Virus record (IMG/VR): IMGVR_UViG_2579778989_000013
Strand: one strand, 5' to 3'
DNA length: 27,028 nt
Source: a virus
Lineage: Duplodnaviria; Heunggongvirae; Uroviricota; Caudoviricetes
Positions 18,929 to 25,300 of the stretch are shown one piece after another. Below the pieces are notes generated by a model. It had not been told where the DNA came from and ran no database searches. It was given only the letters and a program-made list of their open reading frames with translations. The position numbers and the translations under genes are program-made. Each line of letters opens with the position of its first letter. The stretch's first letter is position 1.

Positions 18929-18931
18929 TTG

Positions 18932-19645
18932 ATGACCACGCCTTCAGTTTTGCCGCAAAAGTTATGGCGTCCGCTTGCAGAGATTAAAAACTTCGTTGAA
19001 AAAATGCCTGATGGAGTTCGCCTTACGGAAGTTACTAAAAAAGTTAAGACATTTGCCGAACTGTCAGGAAAGGAGAGAAACCAGCTCATAGATTTTATCG
19101 ATAAACGGGAAAGCATCATTGTATTTAAGGTCAGAAAAGAAGGTTCTGGTAACGGAGTAACCTTTTTCCGCCACAAAAAATATGGATATCCCAAACGGGA
19201 AGGAAACGTCACAATCACTAAGGACCTTCAATCAAAATTATGTACCAGATGCGGGCAGACAAAATCAGTCAATGATTTTTATTCAGATGCCAGCAAGCGT
19301 GACGGGAGAGCCATTTATTGCAAGAAGTGCGAATCTGCAATGAAACGCTCACGCAGAAAATGCAACAAATTAATTCTGCAACAACAGGAACCTGAAATGA
19401 ATAACCTCAAAGCAGTTTCACCTTCACCAGAAATACTCAGAAAACAGGCTGAAGAATTGCTGAAAGCCGCCGAAATTGCGGAGAAAAAACGCCAGGAAGA
19501 TGATGCATTCAACAAAAAACTTGCGCCCTTAAAACTTGAAATCCTTCAGGCCGCCGGAAAAATGCAGCTTAAACTGGACGAATTCATCGACTGTATGGAT
19601 GAAATGAATAAAGCAGTTCAGAAGCTTAAAGAGCTGACCGCCTGA
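18932..19645 (+). CDS. hypothetical pL-operon protein (237 aa) with a CxxC...CxxC pair
   Basis: ATG at 18932 (track ORF 18929..19645); motif CTRCGQ...CKKCESAMK; start overlaps the N stop. Confidence 0.5.
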   Translation: MTTPSVLPQKLWRPLAEIKNFVEKMPDGVRLTEVTKKVKTFAELSGKERNQLIDFIDKRESIIVFKVRKEGSGNGVTFFRHKKYGYPKREGNVTITKDLQSKLCTRCGQTKSVNDFYSDASKRDGRAIYCKKCESAMKRSRRKCNKLILQQQEPEMNNLKAVSPSPEILRKQAEELLKAAEIAEKKRQEDDAFNKKLAPLKLEILQAAGKMQLKLDEFIDCMDEMNKAVQKLKELTA

Positions 19646-20670: not shown

Positions 20671-20892
20671 ATGATTGTTCATCACTTCGGAACTGATGAA
20701 ATACCACGTCAGTGCGTGACGCCTGGCGATTATGTTCTTCATGAAGGTCGGACATATATCGCTTCAGCAAACAATATTGAAAAGAGAAAACTCTATATTC
20801 GTAACTTCACAACAAAAACATGCATTACCGACTGCATGATTAAAGTTTTCATCGGGCGCGATGGCTTACCCGTAAAAGCAGCGTCGTTGTGA
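20671..20892 (+). CDS. Kil-like small protein (73 aa), possible KilR-type cell-division inhibitor
   Basis: RBS GGAGA; translation [45 protein letters not shown]...; length and position (before the recombination genes) match Rac KilR as recalled. Internal start in track ORF 20653..20892. Confidence 0.5.
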
Positions 20893-20975: not shown

Positions 20976-21362
20976 ATGAAAGAACTTGCGCAAAATGAAA
21001 TATTTTCCGAAACCAGTCCTGATGCAATAAATGAACTCAAAGAAATTGCAGAACGCATCAGTAAAATATGCAAAGAATACAAAATCGACTTTGTATTTTC
21101 TTTTTCAGTGCTTACAGAAGTTGGAAATAACGAATATAAGGACAGTCGTTTTGTTTTATGTGGGTTAAATGGCAAAACACCAAGCCCATATATTCATGCT
21201 GCACGTGAAGTTGTCAGAAGCAACATTGGAGTACAACAAATCCATACACTTGCACAGGCTCTTGAGTTTGCAAGAGAAAATTCTGAGTGCGACTGCCCTG
21301 AATGCCAGCACGAAAAGGGAAAAACAACTCACAAAACAGCAAACCAGGCAACCTTCCACTGA
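20976..21362 (+). CDS. hypothetical protein (128 aa) with C-terminal CxC-PxC motif
   Basis: Track ORF; motif ECDCPECQHEKGK suggests a small zinc-binding module. Confidence 0.5.
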   Translation: MKELAQNEIFSETSPDAINELKEIAERISKICKEYKIDFVFSFSVLTEVGNNEYKDSRFVLCGLNGKTPSPYIHAAREVVRSNIGVQQIHTLAQALEFARENSECDCPECQHEKGKTTHKTANQATFH

Positions 21363-21469
21363 AATAAAAATCCGGCAGCGCAGGCTACCGGATTTCTCCC
21401 TGCGTCACCGTATTCGGAGAAATCAGACAAAGGGCCGCTAATTCTAATCCAGCCAGAGGTTTAAATACA

Positions 21470-23542
21470 ATGAGCGCTGATAAACAGACTTTTGCACTAC
21501 ACTGCGAAGCAAAAAACGATAAAGTCAGAAAACGCCTTGGCATCAAAGGCGGTTTTTTCTGGACCGAGGCCAGAAAACTTTCTGTCGCAGTTTCCCGCTG
21601 CATTGCAGCCATGGACGATGCAGGCTACGACGAGGATGATTTCAAAAAACCCGTTCGCGTAAATTTCCCCGTCGTGAATGACCTTCCACCGGAAGGCGTG
21701 TTTGATACTGAATTCTGCAACCGCTATGAAAAAGGCGGGGAAGATGGCATCACCATGATGGCTATATCCTTCAATGACAACATCAACGGTGAAGATGCCA
21801 CAACTGCTGGCGATGACAACGATGACCCGGACGGAACTATTCCGGATGATGTGGAGAAAAGCGAATCCCCGGACAGCGACGATGACTGTTCTGAGTGTGA
21901 AATTCCCGTCGCCACTCTGAGCCTTACTCATCGCTTCCTTCACCTCTTCTTCTTCAGCAAGGATGAAGATGGAAAATACCGGCATCACGCCACACCAGAA
22001 CAACGCAATAACGTGATCCGTATGGAGATGGACACAGAGGACAGTTACCTTCAGAGCCTGCTTACTGCTGTGCGCGCCGCACATCATGAACTGGATAAAC
22101 TGACGAACTATCACCTTAGTCGCCTGGCTGAATCTGTAGGGAAAGCATTCCCCCACTCTGCAAATCATCGCATCAGCCCGGCTGAATTCGACAAGTTCAT
22201 TTCCACCTGGATGAAAACTGACTACCTTGATCAGGGCCTGCTGACAAAAGAATGGCAGAACGGAAATTATGTTTCAGGCATTACCCGTACGCCTTCCGGT
22301 GCTAACGCTGGCGGCGGAAATCTTACCGATCGTGGTGAAGGATTCAAACATGATAAGACATCACTCGCACGAGATGTAGCCACCGGCGTTCTGGCCCGTT
22401 CAATGGATGTGGATATTTATAACCTGCACCCAGCACACGCAAAACGCGTTGAAGAAATCGTGTCAGAGAATAAGCCGCCCTTTTCTGTTTTTCGCGACAA
22501 ATTTATCGCCATGCCCGGTGGGCTGGATTATTCCCGCGCCATTGTGGTGGCTTCCGTGAAAGAAGCACCAATCGGCATTGAGGCCATCCCGGCACGCGTG
22601 ACTGAATATCTCAACAAAGTGTTGACCGAAACCGATCACGCTAACCCGGATCCGGAAATCGTGGAAATTGCCTGCGGTCGCTCATCAGCACCGATGCCGC
22701 AGCGCGGAACAGCAGAAGGAAAACATGGCGATGAAGAAAAGCAACAAGCATCGGACACAATGGCTAATGAACAGGCAGCGCCTGAATCAGTGGAAGAAAT
22801 TCCAGTTAAACATAATGAGGACACGCAATCACTGGAAAATGTCTCATCTGTAGAAACGAAATACCAGGAACTGAGGGAGGAACTCAATAAAGCCAGGGAA
22901 AACATCCCCCCAAAAAATCCAGTCGATGCCGACAAATTACTGGCTGCCTCGCGTGGAGAATTCGTTGAAGGCATCAGTAACCCTGCTGATCCGAAGTGGG
23001 TGAAGGGGATCCAGACTCGCGACACTGAGGACCAGAATCAGTCCAAAGTGGAACAAATTGCCCCAGAAGCGGGACAAAACAGCCCGGATACGCAACAAAA
23101 CGGGTCAGAAGAGCAACAGCCAGGGCCAGTAGCGCAACCGGAGCTGGAAAAAAACTGCCGCGTCTGTGGTCAGACTGGCGGGGGTAACTGCCCTGACTGT
23201 AGTGCGGTAATGGGCGATAGCACTTACACAGAAACTTTTGGAGAAAATGACGCCGCTGATGGAGAAGACTCAGCACAAACTGAGGAGAAGATCATTCAGG
23301 AAAACTCTGTTGATGCCGCTCAGGAGGGCGAAACCGTTGTTCAGAACGAGCCAGGCAGTGATACGTCCGGCGATGACGCCAATTCTGAGCCAGTAACTCT
23401 CGACTGGAAAAGACAGCTCGTGATTGCCGCCGTCTATGGTTTGTGCGCCAACCCCGCATGTATAGCCACAGCGCCAGCAATCCCTGATATCGCCATCATG
23501 ATTGCCAACAGGCTTGAAAATTTCGGAGGTGATAAATCATGA
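21470..23542 (+). CDS. large acidic protein of unknown function (690 aa), translationally coupled to gam; possibly related to the non-catalytic N-terminal region of RecE
   Basis: Track ORF; acidic low-complexity tracts ([30 protein letters not shown]), conserved-looking core [17 protein letters not shown]-terminal CRVCGQ...CPDC; stop overlaps the gam start (ATGA). Confidence 0.7.
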
Positions 23543-23835
23543 ATGCCTGGCTTATCCCCGATCGCATTGAAGAGCAGTCATGGGCACGACACTACCAGCA
23601 AATTGCCCGTGAAGAAACTGAAGCTGAGCTGGCAGACGACCTGGAAAAAGGTCTGCCCCAACACCTGTTTGAATCGCTATGCATCGATAATCTGCAACGT
23701 CACGGGGCCAGCAAAAAAGCTATTTCCCGTGCATTTGATGACGATGTCGATTTTCAGGAACGCATGGCAGAACACATCCGCTACATGGCTGAAACCATCG
23801 CCCGTCACCAAATTAATATTGATTCAGAGGTATAA
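23539..23835 (+). CDS. gam: Gam, RecBCD inhibitor (GamS-length form, 98 aa)
   Basis: Translation [60 protein letters not shown]... is near-identical to lambda GamS as recalled. Confidence 0.9.
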
Positions 23836-23840
23836 AACTG

Positions 23841-24626
23841 ATGAGTACAGCACTCGCAACGCTGGCAGGGAAGCTGGCTGAACGTGTCGGCATGGATTCT
23901 GTCGACCCACAGGAACTAATCACCACTCTTCGCCAGACGGCATTTAAAGGTGATGCCAGCGATGCGCAATTTATCGCATTGTTGATCGTCGCCAACCAGT
24001 ACGGCCTTAATCCCTGGACGAAAGAAATTTACGCCTTCCCTGACAAGCAGAACGGCATCGTTCCGGTGGTTGGCGTTGATGGCTGGTCCCGCATTATCAA
24101 TGAAAACCAGCAGTTTGATGGCATGGACTTTGAGCAGGACAATGAGTCCTGTACATGCCGGATTTACCGCAAAGATCGCAATCACCCGATCTGCGTTACC
24201 GAGTGGATGGATGAATGTCGCCGCGCACCATTCAAAACCCGCGAAGGCAGAGAAATCACCGGACCGTGGCAGTCGCATCCCAAACGGATGTTACGGCACA
24301 AAGCCATGATTCAGTGTGCTCGCCTGGCCTTCGGATTTGCTGGCATCTATGACAAGGATGAAGCCGAGCGTATTGTCGAAAATACTGCATATACTACAGA
24401 ACGTCAGCCGGAACGCGACATCACCCCGGTTAACGAAGAAACCATGTCGGAAATTAACGCCCTTCTTACTTCCATGGAAAAAACGTGGGATGACGACCTG
24501 TTGCCGCTCTGTTCCCAGATTTTTCGCCGCAACATTTACACATCTTCAGAACTAACACAGGCTGAAGCTGTGAAGGTTCTTGGATTCCTGAAACAGAAAG
24601 TCACAGAGCAGAAGGTAGCAGCATGA
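23841..24626 (+). CDS. bet: Red beta single-strand annealing protein (Bet)
   Basis: Translation [72 protein letters not shown]... matches lambda Bet almost residue for residue as recalled; 261 aa. Confidence 0.95.
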
Positions 24627-25300
24627 CACCGGACATTATCCTGCAACGTACAGGGATCGACGTGAGAGCTGTCGAACAGGGGGATGATGCGTGGCACAAA
24701 TTACGGCTCGGCGTCATCACCGCTTCAGAAGTTCACAACGTGATAGCAAAACCCCGCTCAGGAAAGAAATGGCCTGACATGAAAATGTCCTACTTCCACA
24801 CCCTGCTGGCTGAGGTTTGCACCGGTGTGGCTCCGGAAGTTAACGCTAAAGCGCTGGCCTGGGGAAAACAGTACGAGAACGACGCCAGAGCCCTCTTTGA
24901 GTTCACTTCCGGCGTGAATGTTACTGAATCCCCGATCATCTATCGCGACGAAAGTATGCGCACCGCTTGCTCTCCCGATGGTTTATGCAGTGACGGCAAC
25001 GGCCTTGAACTGAAATGCCCGTTTACCTCCCGGGATTTCATGAAATTCCGGCTCGGTGGTTTCGAGGCCATAAAGTCGGCTTACATGGCCCAGGTGCAGT
25101 ACAGCATGTGGGTGACACGAAAAGATGCCTGGTACTTTGCCAACTATGACCCGCGTATGAAGCGTGAAGGACTGCATTATGTCGTGGTCGAACGGGATGA
25201 AAAATACATGGCTGGTTTTGACGAAATGGTGCCAGAGTTCATCGAAAAAATGGACGAGGCACTGGCTGAAATTGGTTTTGTATTTGGGGAGCAATGGTGA
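24623..25300 (+). CDS. exo: lambda-type exonuclease (Red alpha / Exo)
   Basis: Translation [65 protein letters not shown]... matches lambda Exo; ATGA overlap with bet. Confidence 0.95.

Follow-up and report, generated by a model that had tools for sequence, protein, structure and literature searches.

The RecE protein (exodeoxyribonuclease VIII) of the Rac prophage consists of a long N-terminal region with the family PF06630 and a C-terminal PD-(D/E)XK nuclease domain (PF12684). Reviews of 2023 still described the 600-residue N-terminal region as 'of unknown function'. Here we describe a RecE-like gene in a 27,028-nucleotide (nt) stretch of Caudoviricetes DNA (IMG/VR record IMGVR_UViG_2579778989_000013), the whole of which is called the window below. 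Its product of 690 amino acids (aa) shares with Rac RecE the N-terminal ~610 residues, the glycine-rich loop and the zinc knuckle, and the gene has the same operon place after kilR. However, the window protein is without the PD-(D/E)XK domain and carries a 45-aa hairpin instead, and gam-bet-exo follows its gene in place of recT. We consider it very probable that this protein is a functional nuclease-less paralogue of RecE.

Nuclease-less 'RecE-2' proteins are mentioned in a 2025 paper (PMC12315714), whose passages on them give the role as unknown and contain no analysis. According to these passages, they are RecE-related, nuclease-less and located in the early-left recombination module of lambdoid phages. 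The window protein is similar: it has a detectable relation to the RecE of Rac and Gifsy-1, and no nuclease domain is present in its predicted structure. However, the C-terminal tail, the selection pattern and the context survey reported here are not described in those passages. In addition, the ExoVIII-type/DnaQ-like proteins of O157 lambdoid prophages (Rv2179c-like, PF16473) have the same N-terminal module (N-module), with 58% identity over aa 1–628, and their genes occupy the same operon slot just 5′ of xis-int. They have a 3′-5′ exonuclease C-terminus and no Red genes downstream, whereas the window gene has the tail and Red. In the O157 prophage study, ExoVIII-type proteins were treated as an alternative to lambda Exo; unlike in that scheme, an ExoVIII-type gene and lambda Exo co-occur in the window. 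Lambda Gam and the acidic DNA mimics offer another comparison, as the window protein is likewise acidic and its gene adjoins gam and is co-transcribed with it. However, there is no likeness of sequence or fold to lambda Gam, Ocr or ArdA-type mimics, and its acidic residues are concentrated in the disordered linkers rather than on a folded surface that resembles DNA.

Kinship to RecE and domain architecture

The results of BLASTP showed that the window protein is 61.9% identical over aa 1–605 to an 889-aa RecE whose gene precedes recT, 89% identical over aa 1–611 to a 1049-aa PD-(D/E)XK RecE followed by a larger RecT, and 57.7% identical over aa 1–628 to an 814-aa O157 prophage 'exonuclease' (C-terminus Rv2179c-like 3′-5′ exonuclease). 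Furthermore, aa 1–637 aligned to positions 1–598 of the 877 positions of the NCBIfam profile NF007259 (exonuclease VIII). The score of 739 bits fell far short of the curated cut-off of 1269, as nothing in the protein aligned to the last third of the model. Kinship to the non-catalytic N-terminal region of RecE had been tentatively suggested in a first-pass annotation of the window, and the 889-aa RecE and the NF007259 alignment bear this out.

We found only PF06630 in the Pfam search (aa 55–197, E 5.7e-11, 43 bits against a cut-off of 25 bits), and no match to the nuclease domain PF12684. Although the nuclease domain of RecE (606–866) has been solved, a search of the sequences in the PDB with the window protein gave no match at E ≤ 1. 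When three types of nuclease domain were used as tblastn queries against the whole window, there was no match below E = 1, and no remnant of recT was found either. In addition, no nuclease-like fold was present in the AlphaFold2 (AF2) model of the protein. RecT is not encoded directly 3′ of the gene; gam, bet and exo lie there instead, bet and exo forming a complete lambda Red pair, with Exo encoded ~1 kb downstream. Thus, a RecE match that is N-terminal and lacks the nuclease domain indicates the non-catalytic N-terminal region of RecE alone, and the product name is misleading. Judged by sequence and predicted structure, the protein does not appear to be an exodeoxyribonuclease. The full protein also matched phrog_607 in PHROG ('exonuclease VII', sic; E 6.5e-258), a family that pools nuclease-bearing and nuclease-less members under an exonuclease label.

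In the AF2 model, which was built on 104 sequences, the N-terminal alpha/beta domain and the helical domain were predicted with high confidence (predicted local distance difference test, pLDDT, ~82–98), and the helical domain had neither a Pfam model nor a match among solved folds. Beyond aa 410 the model contains short helices and disorder only; the helices at aa 458–477 and 487–494 were of moderate confidence, and the zinc knuckle was of low confidence. The helical segment at aa 458–510 also adjoins nuclease domains in short RecE-like proteins (phrog_412 and phrog_2082). The zinc knuckle is shared with RecE and with the 3′-5′ exonuclease type, and it is missing from more distant tail-type proteins.

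The first-pass annotation had rightly described the open reading frame (ORF) as the largest in the window (the runner-up has 636 aa) and its product as acidic with a glycine-rich motif (aa 277–292); the computed mass is 75.4 kDa and the computed pI is 4.57. It had also placed a CxxC...CxxC pair at the C-terminus. The pair is present at aa 563–577; however, it lies ~115 aa before the end, and the conserved 45 aa after the last acidic tract had been missed. As for the charge, the four predicted disordered linkers carry −14 to −39 per 100 aa, and the folded domains carry about −2 per 100 aa.

There were some further features in these segments. A lone extra CxxC occurs at aa 140–143 (21887–21898) in linker 1, just ahead of the helical domain, and a nearly invariant cysteine, C402 (IACG; 22673–22675), stands at the end of that domain and is distinct from the CxxC...CxxC knuckle. 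Meanwhile, aa 151–262 of the helical domain (21920–22255) exist in two deeply divergent forms, with 35–47% nt identity to the K-12-type RecE and to the O157 3′-5′ exonuclease type, and mostly 75–93% in the flanks. Some distant tail-type proteins of Buttiauxella and Cedecea (L018 4498–6135 and L019 4714–6135) have no glycine-rich core; they keep the N-terminal domain and the tail, and have a different helical domain. We also considered whether 'TDRGEGF' could be a dUTPase motif V and 'NxTD' a GTPase G4 motif; both local resemblances were put down to chance, as the residues are not conserved in distant members.

The C-terminal tail, module exchange and selection

The C-terminus of the window protein defines a subfamily. 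When the RecE-N family was searched with HMMER against 1.84 billion cluster representatives (E ≤ 1e-3), just 205 clusters matched; thus, the family is small. Classification of the C-termini showed that many members of 450–740 aa, with 29–66% identity in the search listing, share a terminal motif with the consensus LTYxQQLTIAALQGLCANPAyxxxxDD(I/L)PxMAxxLA. They are found in prophages of Escherichia, Shigella, Citrobacter, Lelliottia, Buttiauxella and Cedecea. The window protein fits at aa 644–686, where ...QQL(T/V)IAA(L/V)xG(L/M)CANP... leads into a second helix; a disordered linker precedes this element, which closes the protein. We aligned 21 tail-type proteins, all but one of which have an overall identity of 21–30% to the window protein, and 7 of the 10 invariant columns fell in the tail (L650, A653, A654, G657, C659, N661 and P662). 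The tail of ~45 aa is therefore the most conserved part of the nuclease-less subfamily. We also modelled a relative of 606 aa (23% identity) with AF2. Its layout matches that of the window protein, from the N-domain and the helical domain to the disordered linker and the hairpin at the end, although its third domain is a different one. Neither of the two independent models contains a nuclease domain, and in both the hairpin follows a disordered linker of 35–50 residues.

The tail has no Pfam model. The helical core together with the tail matched phrog_26058, which has no annotation and whose profile ends with the tail. A profile of the tail alone, searched against 5.8 billion proteins, recovered short fragments of the same family and nothing else. 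We also asked if the tail could be a leftover of another gene 5′ of gam, such as kil or a GamL extension. This candidate was rejected: tblastn against 50,697 phage records returned only six, all with the RecE-like gene, and the profile search likewise gave fragments of the same family only. Because these searches return the same family or phages that carry the gene, the tail is a C-terminal element private to this family and under strong constraint, and it stands in place of the nuclease. A lipobox or transmembrane segment was also rejected for the hydrophobic tail by reading the sequence, since a signal peptide is missing, the residue at −1 does not suit a lipobox, and the short helices contain proline and aspartate.

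The N-module has been exchanged between genes with different C-termini. A sliding comparison showed that the window gene is ~100% nt-identical to the gene of the 1049-aa nuclease-bearing RecE over aa 61–510 (~1350 nt), and that the identity collapses within disordered linker 3 (~aa 511). In addition, nt 1–289, 749–1748 and 1450–1745 of the gene are further common blocks in E. coli genomes, and the ends of these blocks fall in or beside disordered linkers or the zinc knuckle. For instance, nt 1–289 are ~82% identical to 3′-5′ exonuclease-type genes of more than 1000 E. coli genomes. Elsewhere the N-module is joined to a PD-(D/E)XK nuclease (with RecT), an Rv2179c-like 3′-5′ exonuclease, a fused RecT, coiled coils or the tail. 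Thus, from the block ends at linkers and the fusion to varied C-termini, the N-module is a portable unit recombined at linkers, and one allele serves nuclease-bearing and nuclease-less genes. Among cluster representatives, one 703-aa protein (P0124) has the N-module fused directly to RecT (PF06630 + PF03837) with no nuclease between; this fusion could have arisen by deletion or could be a genuine architecture.

Among 5.8 billion proteins, thousands of relatives were found, and the best 120 of them are mostly of 680–700 aa, with 78–100% identity and PF06630 only. Intact homologues in this range of length and identity number in the hundreds, which puts the ORF well outside what chance would produce. 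Six alleles with 78–100% aa identity were compared; all are intact and in the same context. We estimated the ratio of nonsynonymous to synonymous differences (pN/pS) from Nei-Gojobori counts pooled over every allele pair. It was 0.19 for aa 1–95, 0.20 for aa 151–262, 0.15 for aa 263–405, 0.17 for aa 459–518 and 0.14 for the tail (aa 644–686, with a synonymous divergence, dS, of 0.68), and 0.5–0.8 for the four linkers. By these values, purifying selection acts on the folded segments and on the tail. Four isolated phages, PhiR5_2, phiSTEC1589-Stx1c, Shigella 75/02 Stx and POCJ13, also carry an intact copy; disruption in related functional phages, a point on which the first-pass annotation said its proposal could fail, was not found in these. 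Among prophage fragments from IMG/VR, 43 loci allowed an assessment of the full gene, and 34 of these had an intact copy. The RecE-like ORF is a genuine, selectively maintained gene of the early-left (pL) operon of the prophage.

The operon, the host prophage and feature coordinates

The positions of the gene, its protein segments and its neighbors are listed in Table 1. The TGA of the RecE-like gene (23540–23542) overlaps the ATG of gam at 23539 in the sequence ATGA (23539–23542), as had been noticed on the first pass, and a GGAGG stands 9 nt ahead of the gam start by sequence reading. The bet and exo genes overlap alike at 24623–24626. Since this overlap is of the same type, the coupling is operon-wide and not particular to the pair of the RecE-like gene and gam. 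The order in the six alleles is KilR, a 128–130-aa ORF, the RecE-like gene, Gam, Bet, Exo, DUF4222 and Int. The 128-aa ORF has no Pfam match and ends in a CDCPEC motif; in distant relatives, other small ORFs, often with a YdaE-like zinc finger, take its place.

DNA similarity to lambda-type gam starts only at ~23560, 21 nt into gam, and the tail-coding DNA together with the first seven gam codons (23539–23560) is a unit particular to this phage group. In addition, two terminator-like hairpins with T-runs lie at 21533–21577 on the + strand, within the 5′ end of the RecE-like ORF, where the coding stretch is highly conserved; these may have arisen by chance or may serve as an N-antiterminated or attenuating signal within the pL operon. 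Further upstream, a 238-aa ORF (18929–19645, +) matches phrog_2539, with weak zinc-finger similarity over aa 97–190 to the Lar-like restriction alleviation, endonuclease VII and HNH families.

A prophage inserted in ynfG of E. coli G1/2 has the same sequence as the window (100% identity), and its annotation calls the gene 'RecE family exodeoxyribonuclease'. The prophage seems to be defective: only 69 nt of the N gene are left, a frameshift breaks the O-like DNA-binding gene, and the terminase has a frameshift as well as an internal stop. Despite this apparent defect, the RecE-like gene and gam-bet-exo are intact.

Table 1. Positions in the window of the RecE-like gene, the segments of its product and the neighboring genes
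Feature	Position	Strand	Remarks
kilR	20671-20892	+	Upstream neighbor, invariably present in the close group
128-aa ORF	20976-21362	+	phrog_2016; in the close group it invariably separates kilR from the RecE-like gene
Shine-Dalgarno-like GAGG	21456..21459	+	10 nt 5′ of the ATG of the RecE-like gene (sequence reading)
RecE-like gene	21470..23542	+	ATG start; 690 aa; sequence is that of RefSeq WP_032179076.1 ('RecE family exodeoxyribonuclease')
N-terminal alpha/beta domain, aa 1-100	21470..21769	+	AF2, pLDDT ~90-97; part matches Pfam PF06630
Acidic disordered linker 1, aa 101-144	21770..21901	+	Net charge -17; pN/pS 0.82, fast-evolving
Helical domain, aa 145-410	21902..22699	+	AF2, pLDDT 88-98; most widely conserved part of the whole RecE-N family
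Glycine-rich loop, aa 277-292	22298..22345	+	Family consensus SGAxxGGxNxTDR
Disordered acidic linker 2, aa 411-457	22700..22840	+	AF2 and charge
Conserved helical segment, aa 458-510 (KYQELREEL...)	22841..22999	+	pN/pS 0.17
Disordered Q/E-rich linker 3, aa 511-560	23000..23149	+	Near-100% nt identity to the 1049-aa RecE stops here
CxxC-x7-CxxC zinc-knuckle-like motif, aa 563-577	23156..23200	+	Sequence reading
Acidic disordered linker 4, aa 592-643	23243..23398	+	Net charge -15; fastest-evolving segment
Conserved C-terminal tail, aa 644-690	23399..23539	+	AF2 two-helix hairpin, 646-659 and 662-683
gam	23539..23835	+	98 aa, GamS-length; PF06064
bet	23841-24626	+	RecT family, TIGR01913
exo	24623-25300	+	YqaJ, lambda-type Exo

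Genomic contexts of the relatives and possible functions

To compare contexts, 88 related loci were collected from one-genome-per-species contigs and IMG/VR, and the tail ORF was present in 86 of them. The gene occupies the slot of the recombination module from kil to xis/int, and the loci fall into three groups. Group 1 (83–100% identity; Escherichia and Shigella) has the tail gene, Gam with the ATGA overlap, Bet and Exo. Group 2 (53–63% identity) has a 646-aa tail gene, Gam with a 26-nt overlap, a 365-aa AAA_24 (Sak4-like) protein, DUF1187, xis and int, and no exonuclease was found in these loci. Group 3 (27–46% identity), which includes Citrobacter, Lelliottia, Buttiauxella, Cedecea and IMG/VR contigs, has a tail gene of 470–824 aa, variable small ORFs (DUF7740, Rrf2-like, DUF4060 and DUF1187), xis and int; no gam, annealase or exonuclease was detectable near the tail gene. 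The overlap with gam thus occurs in two clades with different annealases downstream (Bet and Exo in one, the AAA_24/Sak4-like protein in the other). Clustering of the neighbors showed that no gene family accompanies the tail gene in every group except the repressor, xis and int. Because the groups differ in their recombination neighbors, the Red association is clade-specific and the tail is not simply a docking site for Exo, Bet or Gam. A docking peptide specific to these lambda proteins was rejected as a general explanation, since equally conserved tails occur beside a Sak4-like ATPase or no recombination gene. The position beside gam-bet-exo, from which the first-pass annotation had argued for a recombination or anti-nuclease factor, is weakened as an argument by the same relatives.

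The reading that we prefer, with about as much belief as doubt, assigns to the RecE-like protein a non-catalytic part, as an accessory or adaptor, in the early-left recombination module. That it acts in recombination or DNA-end handling is possible, and we propose this part more tentatively. In full-length RecE, the N-terminal region is dispensable for exonuclease activity, yet it raises linear-linear recombination. The window protein would serve as an accessory or adaptor without catalysis in the phage recombination module, in which the folded N-module would act as it does within full-length RecE, and the tail on its flexible linker would bind a partner. As the tail is conserved whatever genes adjoin, this partner would probably be either the protein itself, through oligomerisation, or a host protein that is conserved, and not Gam, Bet or Exo in particular. 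An extension of this proposal, which we think unlikely, is that the N-module is an autonomous machine and the tail a hitherto undescribed peptide that docks onto some conserved DNA-processing protein of the host, be it a nuclease, a helicase, SSB or a clamp. If so, tail-type proteins would be a 'RecE in trans' that recruits an enzyme instead of carrying one, and identifying the tail partner would explain the function of the ~600 N-terminal residues of RecE and the preference of full-length RecE for linear-linear recombination.

Several points weigh against an accessory role in recombination. Foldseek gave no match at E ≤ 1e-3 against PDB and BFVD, a profile search of PDB sequences gave nothing, and neither did lax-threshold Pfam scans of the sub-domains. 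The tail hairpin was modelled at a pLDDT of ~60–66, that is, with moderate model confidence. Lambda Red functions without such a protein, which would then be an accessory at most. Since the distant clade has no gam, annealase or exonuclease nearby, a role of tail-type proteins outside recombination is quite possible. In addition, the gene is disrupted in 9 of the 43 IMG/VR loci. Five of the nine disrupted copies are in an intermediate clade, where several loci are interrupted by insertion sequence (IS)/transposase-like ORFs. In the same material gam is intact in 47 of 48, bet in 37 of 38 and exo in 33 of 35 loci, and the disruption per kb is similar to that of the RecE-like gene.

Such a role outside recombination could be that of a host-takeover, anti-defence or regulatory early-left protein, which shares an ancestral module with RecE and whose tail docks a host protein. 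The distant members, lying between the repressor or small ORFs and xis/int, agree with this, and so do the neighbors, which include kil-type host-killing genes and other small host-directed genes; conservation of the tail across genera while the neighbors vary would fit a conserved host target. However, the N-module that is ~100% nt-identical over ~1350 nt serves a bona fide RecE-RecT gene, and every other known fusion of the module is to a DNA nuclease or annealase. Neither the protein nor its neighbors matched a defence system in PADLOC, and there is no pointer to a specific non-DNA activity. We therefore consider this explanation somewhat unlikely. The first-pass annotation had suggested a recombination or anti-nuclease accessory factor, possibly a DNA mimic. 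As an anti-nuclease it would be an acidic protein which guards phage DNA ends in the manner of Gam or Abc, together with Gam or backing it up. The entire tail-type family is indeed strongly acidic (pI 4.5–5.2, net charge −15 to −57), two clades show translational coupling to gam, and the clade without gam retains the tail-type protein. Nevertheless, the charge sits in disordered linkers that evolve fast and nearly neutrally, the folded domains are about neutral, and there is no structural likeness to Gam, Ocr or any solved structure and no match to anti-nuclease families in Pfam, PHROG or PADLOC. In recombineering practice, systems with full-length RecE still add Gam, and the N-module would thus be no replacement for it. 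The proposal is weakened by these points, and we regard it as improbable.

Another explanation is that illegitimate or homologous recombination replaced the 3′ nuclease part of recE, along with recT, by gam-bet-exo, and that a non-functional 5′ remnant has by chance stayed open. The gene is a mosaic with a breakpoint at aa ~511 relative to full RecE, the similarity of lambda-type gam begins just 21 nt into gam, the window prophage seems to be defective, and nine of the 43 IMG/VR copies are disrupted, all of which could be expected of a decaying leftover. However, the purifying selection acts on the folded parts and above all on the tail, the ORF is intact in alleles of 78–100% identity and in viable phages, and the same tail closes proteins of other genera with 21–30% overall identity. 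This explanation is very improbable and largely refuted. Finally, the product names in RefSeq, GenBank and PHROG would suggest an active exodeoxyribonuclease VIII with a cryptic catalytic site. This is hardly tenable, as the RecE model match halts at profile position 598 of 877 under the curated cut-off, neither PF12684, the solved RecE nuclease domain nor a nuclease-like fold was matched, and a complete lambda Exo is encoded 1 kb downstream.

Databases already contain the gene under a name, and there has been one passing mention of RecE relatives without a nuclease. The subfamily defined by the tail appears to be undescribed, and so do its selection pattern, the lack of a tie to any one recombinase, and the swapping of nearly identical N-modules with true RecE genes. 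Hundreds of database entries named 'exodeoxyribonuclease VIII' for this RecE-like protein are probably wrong on catalysis, and prophages of this kind, which also bear a complete Red system, would be misclassified in surveys where an 'ExoVIII-type' gene is scored as the alternative to lambda Exo. RecE/RecT is a workhorse of recombineering, and the gene is a natural truncation experiment: the N-module is kept under selection without the nuclease, swapped with RecE genes and ended by the tail, which means that the module works alone. The question of the role of the RecE N-terminus thereby becomes more directly testable, and the tail with its invariant G-x-C-A-N-P turn is a compact handle for finding a partner. 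If the protein boosts end-to-end recombination in trans, it would be a possible addition to Red-based cloning systems.

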